Origin: Antedon mediterranea
Taxonomy: Eukaryota; Animalia; Echinodermata
DNA: 64,000 bases
Reading direction: 5' to 3'
Assembly: GCF_964355755.1 (NCBI RefSeq)
Contig: NC_092671.1
Span: forward strand, 33,862,304 to 33,926,303
Under the pieces are notes generated by a model, which ran no database searches, had not been told where the DNA came from, and saw only the letters and a program-made list of their open reading frames with translations. Position 1 is the first letter of the stretch. Every line of letters starts with the position of its first letter. Shown here one piece after another: positions 35 to 62,616 of this stretch. The position numbers and the translations under genes were made by a program.

Positions 35-391
35 TCTAATAAACGCCCATCCACAATATTATATTTATAACACAATTATACTATTTTTAGTAGATTTCTT
101 CGGACGGTTATCTACAATTTACCAAGCATTTGTTATTCTTTTTTACCACTGTTCATATCTACAATAAACACTTATACGCCTAAAACGCTATTAATCATCT
201 AAGACACTTAGGTTAGTGAGTACGTTTAGTTTTACGAATATCAAAAGCATTTAAATAATGGTAACCGACCGAAATTGTCCAGGCCAGAATGTCCTTCTAA
301 AACTGTTTACGTCCCGAGTCATTATCATTCCGAGAACCATCGTCTACACTTCCTAGAGGGGAAGCGAGCGAAGCGAGCTCACACCCTCTAG
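35..391 (+). mobile_element. Short non-autonomous Helitron (copy 1)
   Basis: Starts A|TCTAATAAA at 35. Ends with the hairpin CTAGAGGG..GCGAGCGAAGCGAGC..CCCTCTAG followed by T (CTAG 388-391). No TSD. A near-identical copy lies at 5166-5522. Confidence 0.7.
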
Positions 392-957
392 TACACTATA
401 ATTACTCTATTAACAAATATTGTGTATACAATTAACACAATCAAATATTATTATTGTCAGTTCTTTTTGTGTGAAAATCAAATTACCAGTTTCATACAAC
501 GTGTGGTACCAGAAAAAAAATTATTATAAATATATATAATTATATATCTATAATAATAAGAAAACTATCACAACACATCAATATTGGTTATTGAATTGAA
601 TTTATCACTGATATGTCTGTTCGGGTCAAATTCAGAGTACCATTAATTATTAACTGCCATTGTCTTGTCAAATTGCTCTGGTATTGTAAAAGACAACGAA
701 ATAATCTGTCCAGCTTTATTTATGTTTATCTATTTTGTAATTTGAATCAATAATAATTGTTTTGCGTGTTAATTTACAGGCATAGAAAAAAACTCTACAG
801 AGATTTAAATTAAAATTCTTTATTACAAGGTAAGCATTGTTGAATTGACATAAGTGATATGTACTAGATATTATTAATTAACTGTTATACATTCAAATTA
901 ATAAAATAATAACAGGCTATATGTTATGTTAACAACAGTCTGTAATGAACTGCTTGT

Positions 958-1402
958 TGTAATAAATTACCATTCCCTAACATATAGAGTAACATAGTAT
1001 TTACATGAACATTCTAGAATTAGATGTTTTGATTTAAGAAACCATGTATAATTAATAAGAACAATCAAGAACATTCCAGAAGTGCTATTAATAGAAACTG
1101 TAATCATGTAATAATGAGAAGTATAAAGAATGATCTAGAAGGATAGGAGCATCTTGTATATAAGGGATGTAAACTATTGTAAGGTTGATGGATTAGAGGT
1201 TGGATATCATATTGTAAAGTCATTGTGAAGCTGTTGTTTAAAGTGCTTACTGGATTGTTAAAAGTTGAAGTTGATTGAAATTAAAGCTTTGTTTTTGAGT
1301 TATTTTACAACTTTGTGGATTGTGTGTATACTTTTATGTCACAAGGAAGTTCCTAAAGTATTTTCAACCGCTCGGAAACATACGTGAGAGGAGTTCGTGA
1401 CA
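958..1402 (+). repeat. 5' LTR
   Basis: TGTAATAAATT...TTCGTGACA, a direct repeat of 2897-3341. Confidence 0.95.
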
Positions 1403-1407
1403 TAATT

Positions 1408-1420
1408 TGGTGGCAGCGGT
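1408..1420 (+). other. Primer-binding site complementary to the tRNA-Leu 3' end
   Basis: TGGTGGCAGCGGT lies 5 nt after the 5' LTR. It is the reverse complement of ...ACCGCTGCCA-CCA, the 3' end of eukaryotic tRNA-Leu(AAG/TAG). Confidence 0.8.
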
Positions 1421-1734
1421 TATTTCGATCTACTGTTCGACTTAACTGTGTATTTATCTACGGTTGTGATATTTTGTGGTAGCAGTTTGATCTACTGTAT
1501 TTTGCCATAGATTGGTGGCTGTTTTAGCATCAACTGTACTTTATTGATATTTTGTGAAAGCGGTACTTACGATACTGTGATATTTTACGGAAGCCGCGGT
1601 GCTACGTTTTGTTTAATCGTAAGTACACAAACATTGTTTTAAGAACACTACATTATTTATTTGGAACAGTAGACTTGTGAACGTCTCGGTAACTACGATT
1701 AACTAGTAACAAGACCCTCATCCAGATTTAAAAT

Positions 1735-2823
1735 ATGGCTGATAAACAATCAACAACAAGATCCGGTAGAGAATACAGCGGCGGCGATGAATCTGATTCT
1801 GAGGTAGAATCGGTTCAGTCATTACAACCTGAACAACAGGCAGAAGAGTCTGGACCAACCAGTGGACATAACCCTACAGGGGCTTACTCATCTTCAAAAA
1901 ATGTTTGGTTGTTGATGCAGCAGAACCTTATGATGCAGCAGCAAATGCAGCAAAAACTGCAACAGCAGAATCTTATGATGCGGCAGATGATAGAACATTT
2001 TTTTGAGAAACAGTTTCAAAATAGAAAACACGAAAATCGAAACAACCAGGAGAAAACAGTGAAAGGCACTCCTGAAGTTGACACTAGAGAGGAAAACGAA
2101 TTAAATTCGGAAAAAGGTTCTGTGGTTATTTCACGTCAGTTAGATGATGTGGTTAATTTTCAAGAAGAATTTGGACATTTAGATGGCCAACTACTCAGTG
2201 ACAACCCTCCCAAGGAAAAAGTTCATAAAACCAGAACTGAAAAACAAAAAGTTAGGAAAGAGTTTGCAAAAACAAAGGAAGCTCAATCTAGCCAATATAG
2301 TGAATTAGACATTTTAGATATTGGCAGAGATAAAATTAAGGATTATCAGGTTAAGGATAGAACTTTAATTTCACTTCGAGAACAGATGTTAGTACAGAAA
2401 GATGATGACACTATAAAGATAGTCTGTAAGGATGGAATCTTATTTAGGCAGGTTTTCACTAAACACCAGACAGAACCAATAGAGCAATTAGTAGTTCCAT
2501 ATCCTTGCCGTAATAGTGTATTGAAAGTCTCACATGATATTCCTTTGGCAGGTCATTTAGGTAGGGAAAAGACATTAGATAGGATAAAGCAAAAATTCTT
2601 TTGGCCTGGTATTAGAAAGGATGTGACTGAATATTGCAACACTTGTGAGATTTGTCAGAAAACTTCAAAGTATAAAACTAAATTGAAGGCCCAGTTGCCA
2701 ATAATTAGTGAACCATTCCGACAAATTGACATGAATATTGTTGGTTCATTATTAGTTTTCATTAATAATTATGTTGTATGTTATTATGGCGTATTTAAGT
2801 TTTATAGACTAGGAGTGGGTTAA
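1735..2823 (+). CDS. Remnant gag-pol fusion ORF: Gln-rich N-terminus, integrase H2C2 zinc-binding domain and start of the rve core; no protease, RT or RNase H
   Basis: Motif SHDIPLAGHLGREKTLDRIKQKFFWPGIRKDVTEYCNTCEICQK, then EPFRQIDMNIVG. The ORF lies between the PBS and the PPT. Confidence 0.85.
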   Translation: MADKQSTTRSGREYSGGDESDSEVESVQSLQPEQQAEESGPTSGHNPTGAYSSSKNVWLLMQQNLMMQQQMQQKLQQQNLMMRQMIEHFFEKQFQNRKHENRNNQEKTVKGTPEVDTREENELNSEKGSVVISRQLDDVVNFQEEFGHLDGQLLSDNPPKEKVHKTRTEKQKVRKEFAKTKEAQSSQYSELDILDIGRDKIKDYQVKDRTLISLREQMLVQKDDDTIKIVCKDGILFRQVFTKHQTEPIEQLVVPYPCRNSVLKVSHDIPLAGHLGREKTLDRIKQKFFWPGIRKDVTEYCNTCEICQKTSKYKTKLKAQLPIISEPFRQIDMNIVGSLLVFINNYVVCYYGVFKFYRLGVG

Positions 2824-2896
2824 ATTTTGCCACGTCCATGTATACTTGCCCCTCAAAACTCCAAGAAAGAGTTTTGAGCTCAGAAATAAGGGGGAG

Positions 2897-3341
2897 TGTA
2901 ATAAATTACCATTCCCTAACATATAGAGTAACATAGTATTTACATGAACATTCTAGAATTAGATGTTTTGATTTAAGAAACCATGTATAATTAATAAGAA
3001 CAATCAAGAACATTCCAGAAGTGCTATTAATAGAAACTGTAATCATGTAATAATGAGAAGTATAAAGAATGATCTAGAAGGATAGGAGCATCTTGTATAT
3101 AAGGGATGTAAACTATTGTAAGGTTGTTGGATTAGAGGTTGGATATCATATTGTAAAGTCATTGTGAAGCTGTTGTTTAAAGTGCTTACTGGATTGTTAA
3201 AAGTTGAAGTTGATTGAAATTAAAGCTTTGTTTTTGAGTTATTTTACAACTTTGTGGTTTGTGTGTATACTTTTATGTCACAAGGGAGTTCCTAAAGTAT
3301 TTTCAACCGCTCGGAAACATACGTGAGAGGAGTTCGTGACA
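2897..3341 (+). repeat. 3' LTR
   Basis: Direct repeat of 958-1402, preceded by the PPT. Confidence 0.95.
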
Positions 3342-3456
3342 CTTGTATACATTATGTATTAAATTGATATGCTATTATTAACTTTCTGTAGCTGCGATAT
3401 TATATTTTTTACTTCTCTTAATTACTAAGCTAATTGGTTGATGGAAATGTAGTTAT

Positions 3457-5165
3457 TTAACTATTTTTATTTGTAAATATACAGTAAAATAATTATTCTC
3501 TGTGAAAATTAATAATACTGTATAACAGAACAGTTTCTATTTTCAATTAACATTTAGCCTACTGTAAAAACACAATCAATTTCTCTTTAATTCTACACAT
3601 ATCCACTATTAATTTTAATTATTAAAATTAATTCCCTAACTGTTTGGAATTTACATTTTCGCTGTTTTCTACGGACAATGGAGATCTATCTAATTGTTTT
3701 CTGTTAGTTTACAGAGAATGTTTTACAGATTAGTTACGGCAATTAATTAATGTTTTGCTGTAAACCAGAACTTTCTGTTTTTTTTTACAGAATACCGTAA
3801 ATTAAATATATTTATAAATTTACAGTAGGCCTAAATCATTCTTTGTGAAACAAAAAATCTCTATTTTTAATTAACTATTTAAATTCATTTTTATTGAAAT
3901 AAATAATATTTTCTTGAAAAAAAAAAATTAAACTAACCATCATTTTTTTTTGACACATTGTTTCAATTAATTCATGGGAACATCGGGAAGAATATGTTTT
4001 CCCTCTTCATGATCATTCAAACGAAAATCTTCTAGAATCTTCTTCTATTGATTCGCGCGCGAATTGGAGGAAAGAGTCAAAGACAGGAAAGAGGAATCAC
4101 ATGGCTGGCTGATGCTGGAGATCTGAGTGATCATCTGACCCAGAAGGAGCTACTGTAATATAAGGTCGAACTAACAAGCTTTTTCATTTGAACTTTTGAA
4201 GGTTGATGAATGTGTAGGCCTACTTATTTGCATCTATATTCACTGCGTTGAGATTAGGTAGCCTAAAAACGGAAGGTCTAGGCCAATATAGGCCTGGCCC
4301 TAGGCTAGTGTAATTAGTATTAGGCATTTATGTAGGCCCTCTATAGCTAGACTTGATAACATATTAGTACTAACTATATTGCCTAGCTAATTGTTTGTCT
4401 AACCTAAGCTGAAATAAAAATACATAGGCCTAAACAAAATTGTAAAATAATGAAACATTATTCTTATTAAATAGCAATAATATAATAAGAAGTAAACAGT
4501 AAATAATCATATTACAGTATTGCAAATTGTATATAGAAAGTTGTATTACATTGTCGCCAAACCAATGCATTTATTTATTATACTAAACATTAAACAGGTA
4601 ATATTGCATATTGGATTTTTATTCTTCATTGCAATGCTTGCCTGTTCACTTTGTCACTATTCAACGTACTCAATCAAATCATATTCCAAGCATTATAGAA
4701 TTCATAGAAATGTACATAATTTCAACTTTCCCTGTGGTGTTCCAAACTGTTTTAAAACATTTTCTACTTACTCTGCATTTAACAGTCACATTAGTCGGAA
4801 TCATAAACAGTATCGAGTGGAAAATTCAGTGGTTATCTTCAGATATAGGCCTACCTATAAAATGCAATGTTGGTATATGTGAACAGTATTGTAGTGATAT
4901 GTCCTCTTTGATTAAACACATGAAAAACCACATTGATTTTGGCACTCGGGTAAGTTGTCCCTATAGTTCATGCACAAAATCATTTAATAATAAATTATCG
5001 TTCAAGTCTCATGTATCTCGATACCATAGCTCGACTTTTAACCTTATAGAAAACTCGTACACCAACCGGAACATCGATATATTCTCCACCTCACCCATTT
5101 CCTTTTTCTTCGTGATTTAAAAAAATAGTCCATCAAAAAAGTTATATATTTATATTTACATACCA
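3457..5165 (+). mobile_element. Internal fragment of a CACTA/EnSpm-like DNA transposon (duplicate of ~14092-15742)
   Basis: Nearly identical to 14092-15742. Contains TTTACAG/CTGTAA subterminal-type motifs and a C2H2 zinc-finger ORF. Confidence 0.7.
4634..5120 (+). pseudogene. Frameshifted tandem C2H2 zinc-finger ORF (4 fingers), transposon-borne
   Basis: Frame 1 reads MLACSLC...HYRIH and CGVPNC...HISRNH. After a frameshift near 4830 it reads CNVGIC...HMKNH and CPYSSC...HVSRYH. Confidence 0.7.
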
Positions 5166-5522
5166 TCTATAATAAACGCCCATCCACAATATTATATTTA
5201 TAACACAATTATTCTATTTTTAGTAGATTTCTTCGGACGGTTATCTACAATTTACCAAGCATTTGTTATTCTTTTTTACCACTTTTCATATCTACAATAA
5301 ACACTTATACGCCTAAAACGCTATTAATCATCTAAGACACTTAGGTTAGTGAGTACGTTTAGTTTTACGAATATCAAAAGCATTTAAATAATGGTAACCG
5401 ACCGAAATTTTCCAGGCCAGAATGTCCTTCTAAAACTGTTTACGTCCCGAGTCATTATCATTCCGAGAACCATCGTCTACACTTCCTAGAGGGGAAGCGA
5501 GCGAAGCGAGCTCACCCTCTAG
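5166..5522 (+). mobile_element. Short non-autonomous Helitron (copy 2)
   Basis: A|TCTATAATAAA start, GC-rich hairpin, CTAG|T end at 5519-5522. Confidence 0.72.
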
Positions 5523-6196
5523 TACACTATAATTACTCTATTAACAAATATTTTGTATACAATTAACACAATCAAATATTATTATTGTCAGTTCTTTTTG
5601 TGTGAAAATCAAATTACCAGTTTCATACAACGTGTGGTACCAGAAAAAAAATTATTATAAATATATATAATTATATATCTATAATAATAAGAAAACTATC
5701 ACAGCACATCAATATTGGTTATTGAATTGAATTTATCACTGATATGTCTGTTCGGGTCAAATTCAGAGTACCATTAATTATTAACTGCCATTGTCTTGTC
5801 AAATTGCTCTGGTATTGTAAAAGACAACGAAATAATCTGTCCAGCTTTATTTATGTTTATCTATTTTGTAATTTGAATCAATATTGTTTTGCGTGTTAAT
5901 TCACAGGCATAGAAAAAAACTCTACAGAGATTTAAATTAAAATTCTTTATTACAAGGTAAGCATTGTTGAATTGACATAAGTGATATGTACTAGATATTA
6001 TTAATTAACTGTTATACATTCAAATTAATAAAATAATAACAGGCTATATGTTATGTTAACAACAGTCTGTTATGAACTGCTTGTATACATTATGTATTAA
6101 ATTGATATGCTATTATTAACTTTCTGTAGCTGCGATATTATATTTTTTACTTCTCTTAATTACTAAGCTAATTGGTTGATGGAAATGTAGTTATTT
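5170..6196 (+). repeat. Local duplication of 37-957 plus 3347-3458, carrying the empty LTR insertion site
   Basis: Near-identical sequence with a single CTTGT at 6080-6084 where the first copy holds the LTR element. Confidence 0.9.
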
Positions 6197-6837
6197 TCCC
6201 TTATAGAGTGGTTATTAATGAACAGCTTTTAAAATTAGACAAGGGTCTACTTGTAGTGACATTAAACTAATTATAATAAAATGTAAACGGAGTTTTCTAT
6301 ATTCCACAATACCAAAATTTAAAAGAATTAAATGTATTATTATTTAAAGAAATATGCGACCAAATCGTTGTAGTAAATGTGATAATTGCAGAGAGAGGCT
6401 GGATGAGATGTTGCTACGACGAGAATAGAAATGTGACTAGGAATCTGAGTCGATGACTTATCTCCTTATGTTTCAATGAAAGCCTACTCTCCGAAATCAC
6501 CTAAAAATAAAATTGAAATACTAAGTTTAATACCGTACAATTCATACATTTTACTGAGGGGTTATTTCGATTCGATTCATATGCAGACCAGATAGGTAAA
6601 ATAAAAAATGAATCAGGTAAAAATGGCAAAATAAATTAACTGAGTTATTTATGTATATTGCTCTGCTCTGCGATCTCCTATTTTCCGTCTGCTTCTGGTT
6701 ATGGTTTAATTATATTTATCTACATAGACATAGGATCAACTGGCTTGTTACAAATTTCTCTTTAGGCAGAGAAAATGTATACAGCAGTTAAGAGCAGGAC
6801 TTTATTTGATACTGAACCATGTTGATGCTTCCCTTAA

Positions 6838-7854
6838 AATGGACCTGAAATGGAATTTCGATTTTCAAGAAATTCACACATGTTATTTAAATGTATCAAA
6901 TTAACACAAACCCATACAAATAAAAACAAAATGTATAGTATTTTGAGTAAAAACGAAATTTTAAGATACCATGGTAAATTAGCGAAAATTACTCACGCTA
7001 TTGCAATATTCTATTTTAACGGCCGTCGGAAGCCTCTATATTCACGACGTCACATATACACACGATGATATCGAGAGCGTGTATGCCGCCCGATAGTCAG
7101 TGAATGATCGACGGCCTGGAAAGATACGCAAAGCGTTGACACTAATACTAATGTTGTTGAAATATAGGTCCCTAAAATGTACTTCGTTTGTTCTAAAACC
7201 CGAATTTAGAAGGCCTACCTCCCAAACTTTTACTAGGCCTAGGCCCCCAATCCAGCACGCGGAGTCGATCCACCACCCACATCATGCGGCGAGGCTCCGT
7301 TAAAGCAATATCAACAACTTGCTTCGCTCATTGTCAAGCCAAAGTAAAATATGAATAAAATTCGTTTTCGAACTGCCTGATTCGTGACAAATAAATTATC
7401 ATCTCATATTACTAATTTAATTCTGCTAAACTAAAAACTAAAGAAACTAACACATTTTAGCAGTATAAATTACGAACGATATACAAAATACACGAACGGA
7501 AAATATGGATACGCATCATTGCGCACGGAGCTGTATCCCGGACAACGTTGCCAGGCTAACTTCGGTATTGCCAGAAAAAAACCGTTGATTTTAAGATTTT
7601 AAATCGTCATTTACTCGATGAATAACCGTTTATACGGTAATAATTTTATCTAAAAAAACTGCAAATTTTCCATTGGAGGGATAGGAATATATTCGCAAAG
7701 TGACGTCACCCGCGAATTTTTTTGATTTTCAAATGGGGCTTTCCCCAAAAGGGCCAATTTATATTTTGTAACAATATACATTCTAGCAACACCTAATAGC
7801 CCACAAAACATCATTCTAAAATGAAAAAAATCGAAAATCCATTTCAGGTCCATT
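6838..7854. mobile_element. Non-autonomous TIR DNA transposon with TTAA TSD (Kolobok-like)
   Basis: TTAA|AATGGACCTGAAATGGA ... TCCATTTCAGGTCCATT|TTAA. Confidence 0.85.
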
Positions 7855-7921
7855 TTAAGAACATGTGTAGAAGCTGATATATAAATTATAATAGTATATT
7901 ATTCTCATGACTTACTTTAGT

Positions 7922-10900
7922 TTATCTTCCCGTAGGAGGTCCTGAAACAAAATGGGAATGAACAATTATGAACTGGTGTTTTTTACACATTTAAAATCTC
8001 ACAAGTTCGATGACGGTATAGCAGTTGAATAGCTAATATAATTATACTCTACTGTAGGTCTACGATTATACATGCAAAATAATAACAATTTTAAAAATTA
8101 CAGGGTCTTTACACGATCTTTTCTCTCCATCAAGTTAAAACACAGTATATCGAATGGTACGCTTAAGACTTTGGAGTCTTTAAGAGTTTGGCTTAAGCTG
8201 TAAATGCAATCTACAAATGCAAATTCCAGGTACGATGTTTCTTATATTAATGGATGTAAAAGTCTTTTACGTGTTAAACGTACGGCGGGATCACTATTTT
8301 ACATTTTATACAGACATGATGGTCATTTTTGGTCAAGCAACATTTAAAATCCTGTAGCCTACATTAAGAAACATGAAGTAATTGGTAAATATCATAAAAT
8401 ATGCATTCATTGCTGGATTTAGGATGAGGGGGGGGGGGGTATGACGTATGTAGGTATCGTAAAAAACGCCGAGGCATTCGCGTAGGCCTTATAGTGAGTG
8501 GGTTTAACAACGCCTCTAGTTCACATGCAACATCATTAGTTCCGCAAGGCTTACGCAATACCATACCGTACGTGAACATACCCTATAATTGATAGAAAAT
8601 TAAAGCTAATGAACAATTTCTCATTCTTTATCCTTATGATTTCTAATATTGATACCATTAGTTTCAAAATATTGATTTTTTTAACAATGATGTATGCTAT
8701 TCGATTGGATGAATAATATTGTCTTCAATTAGGCCTATAACCAAAAATAATTGATTTATAAAATAATAGTAGGCATAAATAATATGAAATCTCGTTTGTC
8801 CGATTGATGCATTCTTCTCGTGCATGTGAACATATCATAGATGATAACAGAAAATTAAAGTAAATGGACAATTTGTCATTGTTTATCCTTATGATTCCTA
8901 ATTTTGATATCATTAGTTTCAAAATATTGATTTTTTGAACGATGATGTGTATAAGCTATTCGGTTGGATGAATCATATTTTTCTTCAATTTTAATCATAA
9001 ATAATTGTTTTATAAAATAATTATAATAGTAGGCATATATGCATGTATATTATTACTGTATCTGTGACTTACTTTGAGCAGCGTTTAATCCAGAAGGAGG
9101 TACTGAAAAAAAAAACAGACGTAACAATTATTGATATAGTTATGTTATATTAGCAAAAGTTAGGCTGATGTTTGAAATCTCGTTTGTGGGATAGATGACT
9201 TTCTTTAGTTACTCACTTTCTACTCGACGGATTCTATCCTGACCTGAAATGAAATGAAAATCAGTGTATCAAAACCCACATACAATGTTTTGACATATAA
9301 AAAGATGTTGATGCTGATTTAAACTTTTTTTCCCTAAAACATATAAAATTAAAATTATAAAAATCAGACTTTAAATAGGCCATTGTGTAGTTAAGTTAAT
9401 CATATCCAAAGAAAAACAACTGGAAAATGTAATTGTAAAAAGACAAAATATAGTTTAAATTCAACCCGAAACCCACTTACATTATATTGTATTCAACAAC
9501 AAAAAAATAAAAAATATTATATTGTTCTGTGGAACAATATTTCTTCAATTTTATATCATTTGTATTTAAAGCAGAAGAAAACAATAAGAACTTTTAATTG
9601 TATATTTATTTCAACACATGTAAGTTCGAAATATCTATATCAAGTACTCACCTTCATCTCGACGGACTCTTTTATGATCTGAAACACATTATTTTAAAAA
9701 AATAATAACTGGTTGTATCAGAAGCGCATATGAATTAATGGAAACAAGTTACTTTCAAATCGAAGCTATTGTGATTGTTTGGGGATGGATGAAGGTGATG
9801 AGGTAGGTTATTTGTTGCTCCGGTAAAATTATACTTGGAGTTTAGTTCTATATAATTTATGTTGAATAAGAAGGGTATATTGTAGTTAACATAGGGTCTT
9901 AGTGATACATGTTTTAGGCCAACTGGTAGCTGAGACTCTAATATTTGGTCGGTCCTATTCTTTGCCTTTTTTTGTATTACATTAATGACTACATTACTTT
10001 GAAAATAAAAGAATTAGATATCACATGATTTGCATAGTATTGATATTTCTGACATAGCTTCAACGGAAATGTAGGCAATTACAAATAGGCTTTTATTGCC
10101 AATGTTTGATTATTAAAAAAACGTAGGTCACACATATCATGTACATATTTTAGTATTTAGGCTTATTATCTTTTAAATTGAATTCAACGTGAAATTATCG
10201 AAAATACATGAACATTTGGTAATATGAATGTACCGGTATGCATTGTAACTTACTTTCACCGTTTAATCCACTAGGGGGTGCTGAAACAAAGATCAGACAA
10301 AAATCATGAACACTTTAAAATATTATTCTTTTGAGTATCGAATTACTTTGGAGTGTTATGATGGGGGCTTTACGTTATATATTGACTAATATTGTCTCCA
10401 TCACAGTGAGATTGTTGGAAATGTTTACTTTTGTTAGACAAAGTATAGTGTTTATGGCTGTGACGTCGTCTTTCTCTCAAATTTCAGGCCTATCAATTAT
10501 TAAAAACTGTGTACATGTTTTTGTAACTTACCTCCAGCGTTTAATCCATGAGGAGGTCCTGAAACAAAGAAAAAAAATATGATTGTTTAAATTGAGTAGA
10601 AAAACTTGACCGAAAACCATATTTTAACAACGTATCAGGAATATAAATATAATTTCAGAACAATCGCGAGATTGACGATATCGCCGCGCAGCCATCCACG
10701 TAAGTTGCTGTGACGTCACAAGTAAATGGCAAAATCTGCCTCATGAATTTTCACTGTTGTTAACATACAAGAGAAAGGTACCGTCACTTCAATTGCTAAT
10801 TTCAATTGCCTAAATTTGCCAAAATGTTTAGTCTGGTATTTTGAAGAAACACTTCAATATCCAGATTAGGCAAATGTAACAACAAAAACATTCAACATTT

Positions 10901-12085
10901 ATATTTTTTTACGATTTATTTAAAAAGTGTGTTTACTAGAAATGTTTGCGCTTTGCGAGACAATAAATCGAACTTTTTAATGTACGTGTGCAGGCGCGGG
11001 CAATTGCTGTTTGCCGCAAGTACATCTTTACAAATCGATTAAATTGGAAAAATATATAATGAAAAACTTGAAAGTATTATGTTGGTCCTATACTTTGATG
11101 CTTTGATGGAGTGAGGTATGACTGTATTCTATTTTGTATCACACGTGACTTTAACACAATATCGTGACTCTTTATATATGGCTCTATAACTTGCGGTGAC
11201 GCGCGGACAAAACGGGCAGGTGATTTAATCGTGGACCTATATCTATATACATATGATGTTTTCACAAAACAATAGAAAACGATAGCAATTCAATTGGATA
11301 AACACACCTTTTAAGTTTTGATTATCCAATAGCTTAAGTTATTTATTTTTAATAGTGGTGTTAAAACACCACTATGGTTTTTCTTGGAACTTATCTAACC
11401 CGTAAGAAATGTCACGTAATACGAAAACCAACGATTAAAATAACAAGGATATACGTGTTATAAAATAAACTTGTTAATATAGTAGTTTCAGTATTGTATT
11501 TTCTTGTTTGTCATTATTAATTTATGTTCTACAAATTAAAAACTTCTATCGTTGAATAATATACATTTAAGCATATATAGTACATGATAAAACAATGACT
11601 TACTTCCCATTGCCGAGTCAGCATGAAACAAAAATACTATAACAAATATAACTACCAACGATTGCATGCTGTAAAATAACATGTATAGTGTTAAACATTG
11701 TCAAAAAAAAAAGATATGGAATGAATTGAATATGCAAAATGTATGTAAAATAAACAATAATGCATTGCAAAATCAAATTTAGCTTTCCAATGTTGCGAAA
11801 AGGGATTTTCTTCTGGGAGGCTAAGCTGTCAGGGTATAGGCCTAATTGTACTGTCTCGTTGAACAATAAAAACTCTCGCTTCAGATTTAGAAAAGCATTC
11901 AAATAATTTTAAAGTCTTACACTAAAAAAAAACCAAGAAATTAAACATTAAAAACTGTTGGAAATCTCCTTAGATTAGTGTGATACAATACATGAATGTA
12001 TACAACGTGAGTTGAAAGAAATTATATTTTTTTGGAAAATTTAATATTTTCAACATTATAATAACAATAACACTAACAATAATAC

Positions 12086-12127
<42 letters not shown>

Positions 12128-12250
12128 GCTTTATTTAATCACGGATACTTAACTCAACTGAAAGTTATTTTTCAGAAAGACCTTAAAATCAGTTAGACCC
12201 CTTTACCGAATCAGTGATCATAAGCCTAACACTTACATTTTACTTGACAT
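7922..12250 (-). CDS. Microexon-encoded small secreted peptide precursor, 78 aa: MSSKIMQSLVVIFVIVFLFHADSAMG-RPPHGLNAG-APPSGLNGE-NHKRVRRDE-GQDRIRRVE-IPPSGLNAAQ-RPPTGR*
   Basis: Exons: 12250-12237, 11668-11604, 10558-10532, 10280-10254, 9678-9652, 9243-9217, 9102-9073, 7941-7916 (TAA at 7924-7922). The six microexons have TTTCAG acceptors (exon 2 TTTTACAG) and all exons have GTAAGT/GTGAGT donors. Phases are compatible. The product has a hydrophobic signal peptide, RVRR and RIRR sites and a terminal GR. Confidence 0.8.
8593..9035. repeat. Diverged ~250-bp tandem duplication in an intron of the microexon gene
   Basis: AGAAAATTAAAG...CATTAGTTTCAAAATATTGATTTTTT...AATAGTAGGCAT occurs at ~8593 and again at ~8849. 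Confidence 0.7.
10601..11000 (+). mobile_element. Diverged relative of the TTAA MITE at 16151-16494
   Basis: Shares AACTTGACCGA, TTTCAGAACAATCGCGA, GACGTCACAAGT, GGTACC and TTTACGATTTATTTAAAAAGTGTGTTTACTA. Confidence 0.6.
12087..12126. repeat. (AAT)n microsatellite
   Basis: Trinucleotide run. Confidence 0.9.
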
Positions 12251-12287
12251 GGTGATACAATAACGCCAACTCGAAGAGTAAGAATGA

Positions 12288-12395
12288 TTTATATCAAATG
12301 AACTAACGCATCAAATAGTCTGAATACTAAATGCTAAATGAAAGGAAGGATGAAGAAGATTGTTATATTAGGACAGTTTGAATGTATATGATTGG
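12288..12395 (-). promoter_or_regulatory. Candidate core promoter of the microexon gene (TATAAA plus CCAAT)
   Basis: Minus-strand TATAAA at 12293-12288, ~40 nt upstream of CACCATG (ATG 12250-12248). CCAAT at 12395-12391. Confidence 0.4.
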
Positions 12396-13428
12396 TCAAT
12401 TACTTTACACTAGATTGGAAGGGACGCGAGTTAGAGGCAAACAATGGGATGGGTCACTGTAGGTGTCAATGTTGACACTGCCCTTCCAGTTTAGGTGTGG
12501 ATTGGCTAAAATTCCAGTGCTCACCTAGTGATTCCCACGCTCACACGAAATACAGAAACTATGGTTATAGCAACTATTTCCATGAAAAAAACAAGACTGG
12601 GTCGTGATAGAAGGTTATAGAGAACAGGATACCTGGAAAAATCATCTATAGCATTATAAATCTATGAATTATAGTTTGTATGAACAATCGTATTATGATT
12701 TTCATCATGATATTCTTGACATACCGCGCTATAGAAATATATAAAACAATACCTTACATCGATATATTATTGATGTTTACATCATCAGTGCAACCTTTCA
12801 GTTTGATTGGAACAAACATAATGTCCATTGTTTGTAAGTGTCACATCCAGTTGTGTGAACTCTCTATCACCGTATGTACGTGGGCCCGGCCGATAATACT
12901 CTGAGCCAATTGAAACAGGCTCACATTGAAAAGTTGAAAGCATCTACATTGACGCGACAGTCTACTGGACACAGTTGATGAACAGTAGTTTACTACTGAA
13001 CAGGCTCACCAGAATAGAGAATAAATAAAAAAATAAAATAATATTAATATAACCGTAGACGCAGAGTTATTATTCGTATAGTTATTGGACCACATATTTA
13101 TTTTTAAGTTATATTACCACATGGCACTGCTATATTTACCCGATTTTTTAGTGCTGTATCTCCTCCTACTATAATATATCGAGTGTAATATGAATATTTG
13201 GCAGCATCTCATTTGTATCACATGCCTGTAAGCATGTAAGTGTTATATACATGAAACAAATGTGATGTTGAATTACCATTATTCATATTACTGAAAAAAC
13301 CTAGACTTCAGTACCGATAATTAATTAAAGTGGGTGCTTTATTTATGATTTATTATACATTTCGGAATATTGTTTCGTATACATAATTATGGATTGGCTT
13401 GTTTAACATAACCCAAGGTGCTTATCTA

Positions 13429-15742
13429 CACTGTAAAACAAATCTGTAATTTTACAGATAATATTCTACATTTTTTGTTTGTTATTTATTTTTACAGCAT
13501 AATTTTGTTAAAAAATACATTTTTGCAGTGAAATTCTCTGTTATATTACGAAATTCCGTAAACTTACTACATATCTCTGTAAATTGACGGGAAAAAATAA
13601 TTTAACAACATAACTGTTGGAATTTTAAATTCATACTGTATTTTTACTGAATGTTTTAGGTAATTAATCTGTAATTTTACAGAGAATATTTTACAGATAC
13701 AGTTTACAAACTAATTATGCTAAAAATACATTTTTACTGTAAAGGTCTGTGTTATTTTACAGAAGACCATAAATTAACTACACATTTGTATATATATTTA
13801 CAAAATTTACAAAAAAATAATTATTCTCTTTGAAAATAAATAATATAAAATTACAGAACAAAATATCTATTTACAATTAACATTTATTTTACTGCCAAAA
13901 TACAATCAAATTCTCTTTTAATTCTACACATTTTCACTGTTTTATTACAGACAATGAAGATATCTAATCTAAATCTGTAATTTGACAAAAATACAGAGAA
14001 TGTTTTACAGATTCATTACGGCATAGGCCTAATGTGTTTTAAAAATATATGTTTGAAAGTGTTCTGTTATTTTACGGACCGTAGGCTGAAATTAACTATT
14101 TTTATTTGTAAATATACAGTAAAATAATTATTCTCTGTGAAAATTAAAAATAGGCCTACTGTATAACAGAACAGTTTCTATTTTCAATTAACATTTAGCC
14201 TACTGTAAAAACACAATCAGTTTTTCTTTAATTCTACACATATCCACTATTAATTTTAATTATTAAAATTAATTCCCTAACTGTTTGGAATTTACATTTT
14301 CGCTGTTTTATACGGACAATGGAGATCTATCTAATTGTTTTCTGTTAGTTTACAGAGAATGTTTTACAGATTAGTTACGGCAATTAATTAATGTTTTGCT
14401 GTAAACCAGAACTTTCTGTTTTTTTTTACAGAATACCGTAAATTAAATATAATTATAAATTTACAGTAGGCCTAAATCATTCATTTTTAATTAACTATTT
14501 AAATTCATTTTTATTGAAATAAATAATATTTTCTTGAAAAAAAAAATTAAACTAACCATCATTTTTTTTTGACACATTGTTTCAATTAATTCATGGGAAT
14601 ATCGGGAAGAATACGTTTTCCCTGTTCATGATCATTCAAACGAAAATCTTCTAGAATCTTCTTCTATTGATTCGAGCACGAATTGGAGGAAAGAGTCAAA
14701 GACAGGAAAGAGGAATCGCATGGCTGGCTGATTCTGGAGATCTGAGTGATCATCTGACCCAGAAGGAGCTACTGTAATATAAGGTCGAACTAACAAGCTT
14801 TTTCATTTGAACTTTTTAAGGTTGGTGAATGTGTAGGCCTACTTATTTGCATCTATATTCACTGCGTTGAGATTAGGTAGCCTAAAAACGAAAGGCCTAG
14901 GCCTATATAGGCCTGGCCCTAGGCTAGTGTAATTAGTATTAGGCATTTATGTAGGCCCTCTATAGCTAGACTTGATAACATATTAGTACTAACTATATTG
15001 GCTAGCTAATTGTTTGTTTAACCTAAGCTGAAATAAAAATACATAGGCCTAAATAAAATTGTAAAATAATGAAACAATATTCTTATTAAATAGCAATAAT
15101 ATAATAAGAAGTAAACAGTAAATAATCATATTACAGTATTGCAAATTGTATATAGAAAGTTGTATTACATTGTCGCCAAACCAATGCATTTATTTATTAT
15201 ACTAAACACTATTCAACGTACTCAATCAAATCATATTCCATGCATTATAGAATTCATAGAAATGTACATAATTTCAACTTTCCCTGTGGTGTTCCAAACT
15301 GTTTTAAAACATTTTCTACTTACTCTGCATTTAACAGTCACATTAGTCGGAATCATAAACAGTATCGAGTGGAAAATTCAGTGGTTATCTTCAGATATAG
15401 GCCTACCTATAAAATGCAATGTTGGTATATGTGAACAGTATTGTAGTGATATGTCCTCTTTGATTAAACACATGAAAACCACATTGATTTTGGCACTCGG
15501 GTAAGTTGTCCCTATAGTTCATGCACAAAATCATTTAATAATAAATTATCGTTCAAGTCTCATGTATCTCGATACCATAGCTCGACTTTTAACCTTATAG
15601 AAAACTCGTACACCAACCGGAACATCGATATATTCTCCACCTCACCCATTTCCTTTTTCTAGAAACAAACCTTTAGTTTGTGTCTTCGTTATTTAAAAAA
15701 ATAGTCCATCAAAAAAGTTATATATTTATATTTACATACCAT
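13429..15742 (+). mobile_element. CACTA/EnSpm-like DNA transposon, left end with subterminal repeats and a disrupted C2H2 ORF
   Basis: Starts CACTGTAAAA, followed by many direct and inverted TTTTACAG/CTGTAA motifs over ~1 kb. A zinc-finger ORF remnant at ~15200-15620 carries a deletion. The right end was not found. Confidence 0.7.
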
Positions 15743-16150
15743 GTATGATTTTCTTCATGGTCAGGAAAGCGACTTATACGTACCACACTATATGTAGAAC
15801 TAACATATCTAAATTAATTCGTCTCCTTTTCCATCCGTGCTTTCAATGAAAAAATACTGTTGAATCACCTTGTAGTTTATTTTGTATAGTGTATCTTTAT
15901 TAAAATTCTTTACTTGTTTATCTTTATTTGTATTTATATTTATTTTGTATGTCATTGCATTTTTATGTGAGCGTTTGTGCCTGTCAAGAATTTCCAAAAA
16001 ACACCAACTAAATCTAAATCTAAATCTGATTTGGATTTAATTATGTTACTTATGTAAATTCCGTTTTTAATGTTATCAAACAGAAACGAGATATTATCCA
16101 TTTTTTTTTAATGGTTCTAATAATGTTGAATATTCTGCACAGTTTGTTAA

Positions 16151-16494
16151 AGGACAACTTGACCGAGGACCATACGACTCATTAGGATTACCCCTCAATA
16201 GGGATGTACATTATGATTTCAGAACAATCGCGATATTTACGATATCGTTGCGCGCGCTCACCGTAAATTGATGCGACGTCACAAGTGCATGGCAAATCTA
16301 CCCTCGCTGTTGTTAAAATACAAGAGATAGGTACCATCACTTCAAATGCTAATTTGATTGAATTCAACATTTATATTTGTTTACGATTTATTTAAAAAGT
16401 GTGTTTACTAAAAATGTTCGCGCAATTGTTCTGAAATCATGATATTTACATCCCTAATACGTTTTTAAAATATGGTTATCGGTCAAGATGTCCT
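16151..16494. mobile_element. MITE with TTAA TSD (Kolobok-like)
   Basis: TTAA|AGGACAACTTGACCGA ... TCGGTCAAGATGTCCT|TTAA. Confidence 0.85.
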
Positions 16495-17913
16495 TTAACA
16501 CCGGCTGTAGCATCAATGGTCGAACTTTTATTTAAGCTAGGTCCGAATAATTGAACACTGGCAAGTGACTGTTTAAACAAACCATTACTTGCCATTACGT
16601 CCGTGCGCTGTGTTCAAATGGGAACTTTCATTATTTCTAACTAAAGTTATTGATTTGTGACCAGTTCGTGGTTCATGAAATGAAACCATCGGCGTTATAC
16701 AGTTTTTAATATCAATAGTTGTCATACAATCATAGTTATAATAGCTACAATGTAAGCATAATATCATAGACTGGCTGCTATTAAGCTTTGGTCCCTGGTA
16801 TAAATTTCAAACAGATTTTATAAAAGTGTTAGGGTTATCTAAAAATGGTGTTGGTAGGCCTATACATTTTCTATAATTAATTAGATGTATTTTTTTTCCT
16901 ATACATAATTATTATTCATAATGTATTTATGAACACATAAAAGTGTTAGGATCATCTAAAACTGGTTTCAGAATAAATTGTTTATAATATTGTATGTATA
17001 TTTCCATATACCGGTACATACAGTATTCTAAATAATGTATTTTTTTTTAGTAACTATCTACTTATGCACGTTTATGTTTGATATCAATAGTATAAATTAG
17101 ATATCCATCATTATAAAAATAGATGGAAATATCATCAAGTACAATGTATGTCATCAGGATGAGTTCCTTAAAAATTAAGCTGTGTACAATCAACAGGTAT
17201 TATTATTGAATAAATCCTAAATTAACTGTAAATAGAAGTGGACGAATAAAGGCAATTTGAAGCAATACAAATAGGACTAGATATTGATTTATTCATAACG
17301 CCATACACATGTACAATGCTGAATTAAAAAAGGTAAACAGTCTTGTTCGTGAAGATAATTAATTGAAGTAATTTTATATCGTATTTTGGCCTACAGTTAT
17401 TAATTAACAGCTTTTTATGCAAAAATGTATTTATGTTTTTGGTTCAGAATGTTATTCAGATTCGACTTGATGTTTTAGATTATATTATACTATTATGTCG
17501 TTTATATTTTTAATATATCGTAAGTATTTTTAACTGCCTAGAGCTTCTAAAATGTATCCAGTAAATAATCTCGGTCTCACTATAATGAAAAAAAGGAAGT
17601 TGCTTATGGGACTTATTTCCAATGGGATCCTCAATAACAATTATGGAAAAGACAAAAAAGAAACAAATTACAATACAAAAAGCATGAATACTATGCAATC
17701 CACATATTGCATACTACCTAGATCAGTAGCATGAGTCAAAGAAGAATGATTGTTTGAACACGTTTAACAGTTAAACACTTAATGTACTGTAATGTGATTC
17801 GTATGGACATTTATAAGTCGATGATATATTTAGATTAAGAAACCAATATATTTATGGATAAGTTTGGATTTACATTACCAGTGTTTATAAGTACACATTT
17901 TACGATACCAGTC

Positions 17914-19035
17914 TTTCAAGTTCAAGTTCAAAAACCATTTATTTATTCAAAAAATGGCATTATACAGTATAATATAATTATAGGTGTGTACATAAATGAA
18001 AACATACTAAGCCATCATTTGGGGTCTTCTCTAGAAGAAAACAAGTTTCTTGTCTCGAGAAAGACCCCAGAAACAATACACATACATTTAAACTAATACA
18101 ATTTACTACATAAAATAATAAATAAAAACAAAAACGATGAAATAAAAATAGATACTTTCAGTGTACTACAATCATAATAATATTAAAATTAGTATAAAGA
18201 AATAAGATATTTTTTTTAATTTTTACGAAAAGTATAAAGAGATTTAAAATGCTTTAGTTTATCATCAAGATCATTCCAGATTCGCGGTCCTGAAACAGAA
18301 ACAAAATATTCGGAAATTGTCAGTCTAAAAGGTACATCAAGATGCTGAAATTTATTGTCGATACGTAAATTGTACTTGTGTGATTTTGTATGATGACTTA
18401 ATAGATTAAACATTGTCACAGGGAGTTTGGTATTAAAGAATTGAAAAATAAAGGAAGCAATTTGTGTTGTAAATAGATCATGTAGACTAAAAATATTGAG
18501 TTTTTTAAGTAAAGGTTGGGAAGGGGCGAGATAGTGAGAGAAAGTAATAATACGGGCAGCACGTTTAATTTGTTTATTAAGTTTTTCTAAATTTGATGGT
18601 TAGTCGGCTGCCCAAATAATGTTGCAATAAAGAAGATGAGGTTGTATAAGGGTGTTATATAACAAGAGTAAGATATGTTGTGGAAAAAAGTGTCTTAATT
18701 TACAAAGGATGCCAATTACTTTAGATATCTTTTTAGATACATACGCTTGATGACTGGTCCATCTCAAGTATTCATGTATATAAACTCCAAGGAATAGTAC
18801 TTCGGGTTTACGTTCAATAATATTATTGTTAATGTAAATATCAAGATTAGAGAAATCAATTTGTCTTTGTTGAGTACGAAATAAAATGTAATTAGTTTTC
18901 TGTACATTAACAATAAGCTTATTTGAGATGAACCAGTCAGTCATTTTATTTAGTTCAGTGTTGACGGTGTTATATAAGACATTGATATCAGAATGAGAAT
19001 ACAAAATTGTAGTATCATCAGCAAAGAATATGAGT
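17914..19035 (-). mobile_element. 5'-truncated, degenerate L2/CR1-group (Crack/Daphne-like) LINE
   Basis: Reads FADDT at ~19025, then NKLIVNVQKTNYILF, FLGVYI and LYNTLIQPHLLYCNIIW, later GPRIWNDL. The 3' tail is AATAAA followed by (TTGAAC)n. Confidence 0.85.
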
Positions 19036-21621
19036 GAATATCAGAGTGTCACTTGATCTAGAAATGGTAAAAAATAAGGCATTTCTGAAATGAAAATAAT
19101 TCTTCAGAATGTACGGTGACCCCTTATTATGGAAGCCAATGAGTATCTGTGATCGATTTTCTTTTAATTTTTAATACATTCTACCTCAACGAATTATGTT
19201 ACTTATGAGTTGGCAATATTTTCTTTTGGATGACGTCATCACGTCTTAAAATTTAAATAACGGTGGTTACGTAATTTTACCTACAAGGTATATTTGAATA
19301 CCTACAGCTCTTTTGATTTAAAGTTTACCTCTATGTTTATATTTTAGTATGATAGCTGGTGAAATGTAGATATGAATTCATACAAAAATTAGGCCTATCA
19401 GATGTTGTGACGTTATCATATGGCCAGTTGAAGTTAAAAGGTAGTTTTTTCATCTCTTTCATCAAAGTTATACAATTTTTAAAGAGCGCGCACGGCCCTT
19501 CTCCGTGCCAAATTTTCTTCCAATTGTTATATTTTATTGCTAAATTCATTATCTTTCGATATTGTTATCCACAAGTTTTTTTTATAATGTCATCAGTGCC
19601 AAAAACTTGAACATGATGTGTGTCTGTAATTTCACCTATGCTACACTGTATATAGATATACACAGTACAGTATATACTGTACATAATTATTGTATATGGC
19701 ATATAATAGGCACAACTCAGCACAAAAAGCGTATAATAGGATGGCATACATCAACATTTTTCGATCGTATGTTAACATACGTGCATGTTTAAAAAATATG
19801 AATGTCAATAAAATGATAAAAATGATCATCTATAATTCGTCAAAGTGACGAATTAAATTCTAGTTGTTTTTTGTTTTTTTGTTGTTGTATCTTTACAGAA
19901 TCTTCGTTGATTCAGTATTCTGAGCCGAGGGAAAATTCAAAGATCACATTTCTCTATTTTTGAGATACGGATTGGGTAGGTTTGGTCAGTATGCGTACAT
20001 TTTTATTCTTTCACTTGGGTCTGTCTTGGGCGATGTTTGATGCTGTGTGGATGTTCAAACCGGTTCATGATATGATGTTTGATTCCTAAGAAGTGTGCGG
20101 TTGTCCTCTGTCTTCGGTACTATCTGTTTTTTCAAAATTTGTATTTGCATTTATGCTTCCAGCACTTCCTCTTGTGACGAGACCGAAGTATCGATTTGTT
20201 TTCAGTGTTTTTGGATTAATCCATGTAAAGCTCCGTTTACACTATCAAACGTATGTGGTGTGCCTAAATATGGTAGTGATATACCCAAATATGGTAGTGA
20301 TATGTCATCATCATGTCTATTATGGGCACCTCATATTTTTTTGTCACAAACATTTTAAAGTTTAGACTGAGCTTAAGGATGTGACAGATTAATTTGAGCG
20401 TTTGACTTGCCAAATGATGTTCATGATATGGCCGTAGCACCTACTTTCAAAAGACGTTATATTTTTTTAGTGCCACCTTTTTTAGCAAGCGTGCTTCACA
20501 CGGTTAGACAGAACAAAATCGTTCAATGTAGTTACATATTATAACCATAATCCCGTTTCAGCTTAGATATAATATGCTTTTTTTTATTCGAAACCTATGT
20601 TTATTTATTCATTTATTTATTTAACAACATATTTATACAGGATAAAACACAATCAAGTAGAAATAAACTTGTTTTGCAATGGGGTTGTCTTAAGATCTGT
20701 ATTTAAAAGTATCTTAAATTTGTTTCATTGTGAAGAAAATGTGCATATATTTTTAATTGCAGTACTAAGAAATAATAATAATATATAACACAAATATAAA
20801 TAACATGACAACTTTTAATGACGGATATTAACCAATAACATCAGTTAAAATTGATATGTATTGTACAAGAAATATTTTTTTTTTTTTTAAACAATGTTTC
20901 TGAATAAAACTGATTGTTGTTAGCCTTATTAGGAGTCTATGGTTGTTATAGCATAATATGTGTTTTGTGATGAAAATTATACGTTGTTTGTTCTTTTAAA
21001 CTAAGACGTTAATATATAATAATGACATAATTACTGTGTACAACATACTACGTTATGCATGCTTTAATATTTTTTCTTCTATTTTTGTGCATTCAGTTTA
21101 AATGTTCACTCGAGTTTGAAGTATGTTTAGTGTACTACAACTATAGCAAACATTAATGTTTACTGTACACAACCTTTGATTTTTACTGGTCTAAAATCCA
21201 TATCTACTTTTAACAAATACGTCTTTTTATATATAAATTTGGAGGATTATACATTTTCCTTCCACTTCGTCAATTTACATATACAAGTTAAGTACAGTCA
21301 TTTATACCATCATACCCACCGGGCCGGACGCAAAACAACGTTAATGAAGCGACAGTTAGACTCAATCACCAATCAAAACGTAACTTATTTTTAGTGCACT
21401 TTCATGATTTCTTACTTAATAATAGGGAAGAGTACACTTTCAATTTCCCTCTTTTCTGCTTAATAACCAACATCAATTTACTTATTTGAATTGTGTGCAA
21501 AAAATGATATTCCTTCTAAGCATTCATTCAAAATAGTTTGTCTCTTACTGGTGTTTTAGAATTGCTTTCAATGCTATATTCAAATATCTTAGTTATGAGA
21601 AATCTCTAGGCCTATATTATA

Positions 21622-60371: not shown

Positions 60372-60549
60372 CTGTAAAACAAAACAACAAATTTAAATAC
60401 AAGATATCATTTTAATGTGTTGAGATTAGGCCTATAAGTTAAAATAGTGATGATAATGTTGGAGTGCGTTTAGCGTTCGCCTACAGTAACTCATGTTATT
60501 TGTAAAGAAATCATGCAAATGCGTGTGATCCTTGAGCAAGATTCTTTAC

Positions 60550-62410
60550 CCTGAACAGTACATGCTGACACAGTAACTCTTAAATAGATAACATTTAGTC
60601 TTAGTAGAACAATTTCCAAACTTTCTATTTAGAGAGTTGGCCCTAATGCAAATAGATCGATATTGACGTTTGATGTCACTTTCATCACTCAGGTTATTAC
60701 TGATCACATGACCAAGATAGGTTATTGAATTATCAACGATTAGAGGTGCCTCATTTAAGGTAATATGTGGAACACCTTTGAGGTTGCGGATTTTCGGGAA
60801 AAATAGCAAGCATTTGGATTTGGTTTCATTAAAAGTAATATCATGGTCACTAGCAAAACCTTCACAGAGTCCAATTAGGCTTTGTAAGCTAGTCACTGAC
60901 GGAGCCAAAAGGACCAAGTCATCAGCAAAGCTTAGGCAATTCAGTTTAAGACTGTTAATTTCACAACCTTCTTTTGACTTAGTCAGTTCAACAGTTAACG
61001 GATCAGTGTACACATTGTAAAGTAGAGGGGACATAACGCCTCCCTGGCGAACCCCATTACGAACAGTGAAAGAATCGGAAACGGAACTTCCACACCTGAC
61101 AACAAATTCCTGATTCCTATACCATGACCTCAGTATCTTAACTACAGGTGAAGGGGTGCCCCTGTCAATTAGGGTCTTAAAAAGTGTCCAGTGGTTTACT
61201 TTATCAAAGTCTTTGCTAGCGTCCAAGAAACAGCAATAAACTGGGCTACCATGATCGTTGTAATGCTCGATAATCTGTTTAAGAGCAAATATACACAATT
61301 CGGTTGAGTGACCAGATTTGAGGGCCAACTGGTTGTCATGGGAGTCCAGTGAATTACCACAATGTTGTATCATTACAGACTCTAGAAGTTTAGAAGCTAC
61401 ACATGCCAAAGCTATTGGCCGATAATTCCCTTTATCAGTGACATTCCCTGATTTAGATTTAATTACCGGCACAAGCGTGACTTTTGTGAGACTACTTGGA
61501 ACAAACCCGTGAACAAACATAGCCTTAAAACATACACTTAAAATAATACTAAGTCGCTCAGAAGCGAATTTGAAATGCTCATTGCATAGACCATCATAAA
61601 TATCGCAGCTTTAGCATTGGGCAATTTATCAATTAATAGCTTAATATTATGGGGTGAAACATCAATTTCACCGTCTGTACAGTTTTCAAGAGTTTTATTA
61701 ACAACAGTCTTATGCTCAGATGAGTCAATACTATTAAATAAATCGGAGAAATGTTGACGCCATAGGTCACAAATGTCATTTTCCCCCTTAGCACTACCAA
61801 TAATGTTAGACTGGGAATTGGCGTAGCTGAATTTCTTAACCTTACCCCAGAAACTATTATAGTCCTTATCGTCAAAAGACTTGGCCATCGAGTCCGCCCT
61901 TAGCATTTCTTCGTTGGATTTACACTTTCTGAGGGCATTTTGGAAATTAGATCTAGTGATTTCTATGTGTTCATAGATGTGGCCATATCTTACCCAACCC
62001 ACGCCACTTCAAAATGCTTCCCGGGCATGTTTATGAAATCTAGCTACTCGGTTATTCCACCCAGGGACAACATTGACTTTTTGATTTTTAGTCGACTTAA
62101 AACACCACTCAGAACTGGCTTTCAGACACTCAATAATATTGTCATATAAATCACTAATATCATTGCAATGGCATTCATCTTTAGGCCTACATGAGGAATC
62201 ATTACAAAGTATACCATCGCAATTGAGAGTAAGGTTACTAAGTAAGGATTCAGTTATCTCATTAAAATTGTTTATATCCTCCCTCTTAACATTATTCCAG
62301 TTAACTTTGATAATTTTTGAGGATTCATGCATATTTTCACCCTTGTCATTACAATCATCACAAATATCAATGCCTAAATAGTCAAACGAAATAGGAAAGT
62401 GATCAGAACA
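60550..62410 (-). mobile_element. RTE-X-like LINE fragment (end of APE, linker, RT), truncated at both ends
   Basis: SDHFPI, PGWN and FWGKV, plus RT motifs essentially the same as in the 43671-45069 copy. Frameshifted. Confidence 0.85.
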
Positions 62411-62412
62411 CA

Positions 62413-62616
62413 TCTATATATAAATTTACGTAAGGGCAAAATTCGGTAAATCGCGCCTTACTTTTAGAATTTTTACTCGATGGTATATGAAGTTGGTTCG
62501 TACTTTCGGTACTGATTTTAACCACCTGATGTAACCCTGTTTACTAATTAAATTAAGTTAGATAATTAGTTATTGACGATTAAAACGAATTTAGGTTCAA
62601 CGATTTGCCCCAAATA
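62413..62616 (+). mobile_element. Helitron 5' end, same family as 39611-40803
   Basis: A|TCTATATATAAATTTACGTAAGGGCAAAATTC..., matching the reverse complement of ~40605-40803. The 3' end was not identified. Confidence 0.75.

Follow-up and report, generated by a model that had tools for sequence, protein, structure and literature searches.

The stretch of DNA analysed here, a window of 64,000 nt from the feather star Antedon mediterranea (contig NC_092671.1; positions below count from its first letter), carries on its minus strand a microexon gene that is real and transcribed and that seems not to have been described. Its coding part is spread over eight exons, which join to 237 nt including the stop and encode 78 residues. 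The 14-nt coding part of exon 1 (12237..12250) provides the ATG in a CACC-ATG context and is followed by exon 2 (11604..11668; 65 nt), which encodes the hydrophobic core of a predicted signal peptide and ends in phase 1. Six microexons complete the frame. Exons 3 (10532..10558) and 4 (10254..10280), both of 27 nt and phase 1-1, encode PPHGLN and PPSGLN, respectively; exon 5 (9652..9678; 27 nt) encodes a KRVRR convertase site together with acidic residues, and exon 6 (9217..9243; 27 nt) an RIRR site; exon 7 (9073..9102; 30 nt) encodes PPSGLN again, and exon 8 (7916..7941; 26 nt) ends the frame with PPTGR and a stop (7924-7922). Exon 9 (5945..6500) is untranslated and forms the 3' untranslated region (UTR), with AATAAA at 5951-5946. 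At the opposite end, the 5' UTR of exon 1 probably reaches about 12320, as judged from bin depths in the sequencing run X1 described below, and a two-codon upstream open reading frame (ORF) lies inside it (12311-12303, minus strand). All six microexons are bordered by TTTCAG upstream and by GTAAGT or GTGAGT downstream. A previous interpretation made from the letters of the window, hereafter the sequence-only reading, had placed the eight coding exons, their translation and the microexon borders exactly as we find them; its gene model nevertheless stopped short of the ninth, untranslated exon that starts at 6500.

The organization of the coding frame is highly regular. From exon 2 onwards every boundary is in phase 1, all five internal microexons have a length divisible by three, and each of the 32 possible subsets of exons 3-7 preserves the frame. 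Exons of 36 nt or less hold 172 of the 237 coding nt, including all 158 nt that follow exon 2. A strict short-exon pattern (≤35 nt) matches six times on the minus strand, always in this gene, and twice on the plus strand, the chance level being a mean of 0.25 matches per strand with a maximum of 2 among 100 Markov strands. Across exons 3-7 the used frame is free of stops versus four and five stops in the other two frames, a stop-free frame arising in 6.8% of 20,000 letter shuffles, and the GC content is 0.45 in exons versus 0.30 in introns. The stop codon is located 6 nt upstream of the last junction; since a stop so close to the last junction escapes nonsense-mediated decay (NMD) under the usual 50-nt rule, the transcript is expected to avoid this fate.

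All the microexons derive by copying from two phase-1 modules: P (exons 3, 4, 7 and 8) encodes xPPxGLN, and R (exons 5 and 6) encodes RxRR with acidic neighbours. P exons share 15-21 of 26-27 nt with one another and the two R exons 19 of 27, whereas only 4-9 nt are shared between P and R. A profile search with both modules found no further copy of either in the window. Exon 8 is a P exon in which a 2-nt insertion turns the Leu-Asn codons into Arg-stop, and the terminal Gly-Arg-stop is thus the result of a frameshift in a copied exon. The amidation signal at this Gly-Arg end could therefore be incidental, a by-product of the frameshift that later proved useful or not.

Five sequencing runs matched the window, four of them DNA-like and one, X1, guessed by the tool to be RNA (share 0.09), none of the five being recorded as RNA. 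Two were compared with the window, X1 (RNA-like) and X2 (DNA), and X1 again at lower stringency; the X1 data are contigs of one run, and joint counts for both runs are among the joints listed. X1 contains at least four exact GT-AG (CT..AC) joints, between exons 1 and 2, 2 and 5, 5 and 6, and 8 and 9 (7916/6500), and the DNA run X2 has a depth of 0 at all four. The spliced transcript that the sequence-only reading anticipated is recovered in X1 for four of its seven junctions, 1-2 and 5-6 exactly and 6-7 and 7-8 with changed exon-end letters, while junctions 2-3, 3-4 and 4-5 were not found among the X1 joints listed. Exon 6 is joined in X1 to exons 2, 5, 7 and 8, and exon 8 to exons 6, 7 and 9. 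For exon 3 there is no RNA joint among those listed; the bin of exon 4 has an X1 depth of 0, and one X1 contig joins exon 2 to exon 5 across it. Because contigs drop rare forms, the missing cover of exons 3-4 is not proof of silence; their inclusion in a transcript not having been found, the exact 78-residue form with both exons is still a prediction. The single X1 difference listed in exon 2 (11635) is synonymous on hand reading. An artefact of the assembly was considered and rejected, since an X2 contig covers 9132-10642, including exons 3 and 4, with 0 differences, although X2 may be the source sample.

At least three transcript forms are present in X1, with joins between exons 2-5, 2-6, 6-7 and 6-8. 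Forms occur without exons 3-4, without exons 3-5 or without exon 7, the latter being present in two contigs and absent from a third, and at least one RxRR is kept in every X1 form shown. In the contig of depth 49.5, exon 7 is preceded by 12 additional nt and is itself lengthened by a 3-nt insertion; in that of depth 63.1, an additional piece of 39 nt separates exon 7 from exon 8 (window 9072 to 7941). The three resolvable changes in coding length (3, 12 and 39 nt) are all multiples of three, for which the chance is about 1 in 27. The 39-nt piece is stop-free on hand reading and absent from the 64,000-nt window. It is also a near-perfect 17+17-nt palindrome with two mismatches, and its end resembles the start and the end of exon 7. 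Its possible sources are an exon formed by inverted duplication in a different allele or paralogue, and cDNA folding back on itself as an artefact. Where exon 8 meets exon 9, X1 displays three different sequences (depths 22, 61 and 63), more than one diploid locus would supply; either several animals were pooled in X1, or paralogues of the gene exist. X1 contigs over 6035-6444 in the UTR of exon 9 (depth 43-47) differ by about 5% from the window, and in view of this divergence the forms may be alleles or paralogues. A second copy inside the window as the source of the variants was rejected by self-BLAST and module-profile searches. The X1 data thus show differing module content, which splicing, alleles and paralogues fit alike.

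Besides the microexons, the window bears larger traces of duplication. Self-BLAST revealed at 37..5173 a relic tandem copy of the 10.6-kb gene unit (5170-15749), in which both flanks are retained at 94-100% identity and the core corresponding to 6197-14091 is lost; judged from these alignments, it is a recent copy of the locus without its coding core. A long terminal repeat (LTR) element is inserted in the copied 3' UTR of this relic (958-3341), with 445-nt LTRs that are 99.3% identical; it is a young retroelement relic with TG...CA ends, a 5-nt target duplication and a 363-residue ORF at 1732-2823. In intron 7 of the gene itself, sequence self-comparison uncovered a tandem 255-nt duplication (8572..9040, minus strand) of 80% identity whose second copy lacks an exon. 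Read from such traces, copying and loss act at both the exon and the gene scale. A high-copy element with inverted ends occupies 10598-10951 in intron 2, directly upstream of exon 3, and could favour the rearrangement or skipping of exons 3-4; a related copy is found 5.5 kb away at 16145-16500. Duplicated plus-strand ORF fragments (4496-5120 and 15115-15504) show a C2H2-zinc-finger-like Cys/His spacing and are probably a transposon relic.

Upstream of the microexon gene lies an adhesion G-protein-coupled receptor (GPCR) gene (~21622-49324, minus strand; PF00002, PF01825, PF02494) that matches A. mediterranea P0001 and contains many one-exon HYR domains, a C-type-lectin-like exon (47515-48018) and a very acidic C-terminal tail. 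One of these HYR-domain exons (42843-43094) matches 83 residues of an A. mediterranea GPCR/GPS/HYR-domain protein with 100% identity. The C-terminus of the receptor is encoded at 21660-21625 and its frame stops at 21624-21622, 9 kb upstream of the microexon gene, which led us to reject the microexons as part of this receptor; the sequence-only reading, which membership of a larger known protein would have refuted, holds in this respect. Elsewhere in the window, a 1150-residue open frame (51744-55196, minus strand) looks like a non-LTR retrotransposon endonuclease/reverse transcriptase, additional fragments of this appearance are located at 18216-19040, 43856-44944, 56271-57285 and 60546-62413, and simple tandem repeat tracts at 37555-40000 give overlapping repetitive ORFs.

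In the predicted protein, residues 8-19 form a hydrophobic core with a 9-residue hydropathy of up to 3.9, and the Ala-Met-Gly at the end of exon 2 fits the -3/-1 rule as a putative signal-peptide cleavage site. RxRR, a furin consensus, occurs twice, at residues 48 and 57, in a region flanked on either side by PPxGLN, and extra basic sites are present as KR in exon 5 and RR in both R exons. Cleavage is predicted to yield a 20-mer that carries the PPxGLN motif twice, an acidic spacer of five residues and, at the C-terminus, a 16-mer; without exons 3-4 the products are reduced to the spacer and the 16-mer, and without exon 7 the last predicted peptide is a 6-mer. The predicted P peptides have a net charge of 0, no aromatic residue, no cysteine and an X-Pro-Pro start, and the uncut mature part is rich in Arg, Pro and Gly with an isoelectric point (pI) of 11.7. 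Being short, the whole product is probably disordered.

Searches for relatives relied on a weak protein query of 54 residues, to which the signal-peptide exon contributes 21 real residues and the flanking intron sequence, read in frame, the rest. With this query, no protein relative of 29-95 residues was found in a 5.8-billion collection, and the range of 96-2000 residues gave one candidate and none at E≤10. The exon pattern had 0 matches in metagenome contigs, a search that is uninformative for an animal gene. Published work is covered here and below in excerpts. In the crinoid neuropeptide list (PMC9793003), six motifs returned 0 matches in the seven supplements, whose long cells were shortened, and file 2, one cut row apart, is without the gene. 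The main text of a starfish paper gave 0 motif matches, and ophiuroid supplements gave GLNA only, which stands in the precursor rows in a GLNALTFGKR context. Literature text on the motif and on echinoderm microexon peptides yielded unrelated papers, human ones for the motif, and no description of the gene, supplements being outside its scope. The sequence-only reading, which did not recognise PPxGLN as the motif of a described peptide family, is in agreement with the absence of the gene from the covered part of the published crinoid precursor list (PMC9793003).

Our preferred reading, held tentatively and at somewhat less than an even chance, is that the gene product is secreted and cut by convertases into variable signalling peptides, which would have a part in recognition and evolve fast. 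The signal peptide would be removed after Gly26, and a furin-type convertase together with a carboxypeptidase would release the 20-mer, only if exons 3-4 are included, and the acidic spacer. The same cleavage would free the C-terminal 16-mer, or the 6-mer in forms lacking exon 7, as a candidate for amidation. Whenever a P or R exon is gained, lost or skipped, a different set of peptides would be released, with the frame intact. Tandem peptides separated by RXRR, as in Drosophila Baramicin (PMC8423362), favour this reading. The lack of net charge, aromatic residues and cysteine in the predicted peptides argues against membrane lysis, and these features would better fit receptor ligands that X-Pro-Pro protects from proteases. 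The module changes and the high polymorphism suggest a fast-evolving recognition role, with immune, epithelial-gland or reproductive signalling as candidates, over that of a conserved neurotransmitter. In the same vein, the two-module origin of the microexons, the exon-skipped or exon-lacking forms and the relic copy, all absent from the sequence-only reading, suggest that the system varies fast and is not a conserved neuropeptide. That reading is partly supported: the spliced gene, the signal-peptide-like N-terminus and the two RxRR sites stand, whereas cleavage, amidation and a neural role are putative. As a further and bolder possibility, of lesser probability, the gene may work as a peptide kit made of a peptide microexon and a cleavage-site microexon, both neutral to the frame, from which exon skipping and copy-number change between alleles and paralogues would give feather stars a polymorphic repertoire of PPxGLN ligands. 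If so, the kit would serve self, mate or microbe recognition, and a diversity system resembling the microexon genes (MEGs) of flatworms would have evolved independently outside them.

Several points weigh against the preferred reading. Secretion, cleavage, amidation and function are all inferred, and neuroendocrine convertases may also cut at the KR and RR sites. Pooling of animals with different alleles, or paralogues, may have given rise to the X1 forms instead of alternative splicing, and the RNA evidence comes from a single run of contigs with a tool-guessed status. Moreover, the sides of the joints measure 24-28 letters, below the 31-letter bridging bar of the tool, which 27-nt exons cannot reach; four key X1 joints are flagged 'between: not known', and the exon 2-6 joint is one nt off.

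Four other explanations rival the preferred reading, and we assign them decreasing weight. A classical crinoid-specific neuropeptide or neurohormone precursor, which PC1/PC2, CPE and PAM would process in dense-core vesicles and whose amidated C-terminal product would signal through a GPCR, is a real but lesser possibility. The signal peptide, the KR and RR dibasic sites, the acidic spacer, the terminal Gly-Arg, the repeated motif and the X-Pro-Pro starts are all consistent with it, as are the anatomical features used to define PCNP1-20 (PMC9793003). In addition, a precursor of 78 or 60 residues could have been missed by that survey, whose minimum length is 75 residues (PMC9793003). However, the crinoid precursors listed there mostly have (G)KR sites and are closely similar in three species (PMC9793003), whereas the module content of the microexon gene varies inside one run; its mature part is free of aromatic residues and of the C-terminal motifs that mark the listed families, and its Gly-Arg-stop derives from a frameshifted module. 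It is unlikely that the gene instead encodes a directly acting secreted effector for defence, deterrence or adhesion, released by coelomocytes, saccules or epidermal glands in the manner of Baramicin or apidaecin. The RxRR-separated repeats, the basic composition of the uncut mature part, the local duplication and polymorphism, and the existence of variable secreted repeat proteins in immune-type cells of a sponge and a tunicate (bioRxiv 10.1101/2024.12.24.630263) would suit such a role, but the predicted cleaved peptides have a net charge of 0 or -3 and are neither amphipathic nor aromatic, and one to three motif copies represent little amplification.

The two remaining explanations dispense with the released peptides. 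A small disordered secreted protein could function without cleavage, its splice variants forming a pool as those of the schistosome MEG proteins do, with RxRR and Gly-Arg being incidental. The MEG layout of the gene and the module-level variants in X1 speak in its favour, but a full RxRR stands on each of two separately kept exons and none of the X1 forms shown has lost both, so we judge it improbable. Finally, a non-coding or decaying transcript with an accidental frame would account for the decayed copy in the neighbourhood and for the lack, with the signal-peptide query, of any 29-95-residue protein sharing three 5-residue words in the 5.8-billion collection. It appears highly improbable in view of the signal peptide, the single open frame, the in-frame variants, the synonymous change in exon 2, the contrasting GC of exons and introns and a stop placed to escape NMD.

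Under the preferred reading of a convertase-cut precursor, the two modules map onto the logic of a prohormone, with one exon for the peptide and another for the cleavage, and show a route to varied peptide output with the frame intact. The locus also marks a class of genes that is missed by gene finders and by length-filtered neuropeptide surveys. The predicted peptides are short enough for chemical synthesis, so that their function is directly testable in A. mediterranea, for which in situ and arm-preparation assays are working (PMC9793003).

Compared with known systems, the feather-star gene shares the general anatomy of neuropeptide precursors, with a signal peptide and basic cleavage sites, but not the C-terminal L/F-x-F/L/M-amide of SALMFamides, its mature part being devoid of Phe and Met and ending in PPT-G-R. 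Other peptides and proteins offer local resemblances: the polymorphic mucins SmPoMuc use a 27-nt exon for a 9-residue repeat, cnidarian GLWamides start with xPPxGL, bradykinin starts with RPP and speract holds LNG. The likeness is on the surface only, as the feather-star product is not rich in Ser/Thr like a mucin and lacks a Trp-amide, a PFR end and a GGG end. Among the crinoid precursors and PCNP1-20, the signal peptide, the basic cleavage sites and a possible C-terminal amide are common features (PMC9793003); the new gene departs from the entries covered by its RxRR in place of the usual (G)KR, by the lack of a family-defining C-terminal motif and by its variation within the species. GranRep of Spongilla and YYD of Ciona are variable secreted repeat proteins that offer a looser parallel, being lineage-specific and combining a signal peptide with short imperfect repeats that vary between copies or alleles (bioRxiv 10.1101/2024.12.24.630263). 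In GranRep, however, the repeats lie in one exon of a three-exon gene and the cell type is known, and RxRR processing is undescribed in the covered part of that source.

Two systems come closer. In Drosophila Baramicin A, a signal peptide is followed by tandem related peptides between RXRR sites, and the locus undergoes polymorphic duplication (PMC8423362). The arrangement of the peptides, found also in apidaecin, is that of the feather-star precursor, but there is no motif similarity and the predicted feather-star peptides are few and neutral; the build of one module per exon is unmentioned in the covered part of PMC8423362. The other system is that of the schistosome MEGs, which yield small secreted products and have been described as restricted to flatworms (PMC4350168, PMC4671649, PMC10526429). 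Whereas microexon genes for small secreted proteins have thus been regarded as a feature of flatworm parasites, the gene reported here is transcribed and belongs to a free-living deuterostome. As in MEGs, a longer 5' exon encodes the predicted signal peptide, the microexons are symmetric and shorter than 36 nt, the predicted product is small and secreted, variants differ in exon content, and annotation easily misses the gene. It differs by having six microexons versus 10-20 in S. mansoni MEGs, and by exons copied from two modules, of which one encodes a convertase site; this makes a peptide precursor the likely product. As regards lineage and homology, the window is from an echinoderm and the weak signal-peptide query returned no database match; because the layout agrees with that of MEGs and the lineage and homology do not, the gene is MEG-like in layout and is not classed as a MEG. 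What apparently is new is the combination of a MEG layout with a multi-peptide precursor, both kinds being known separately.

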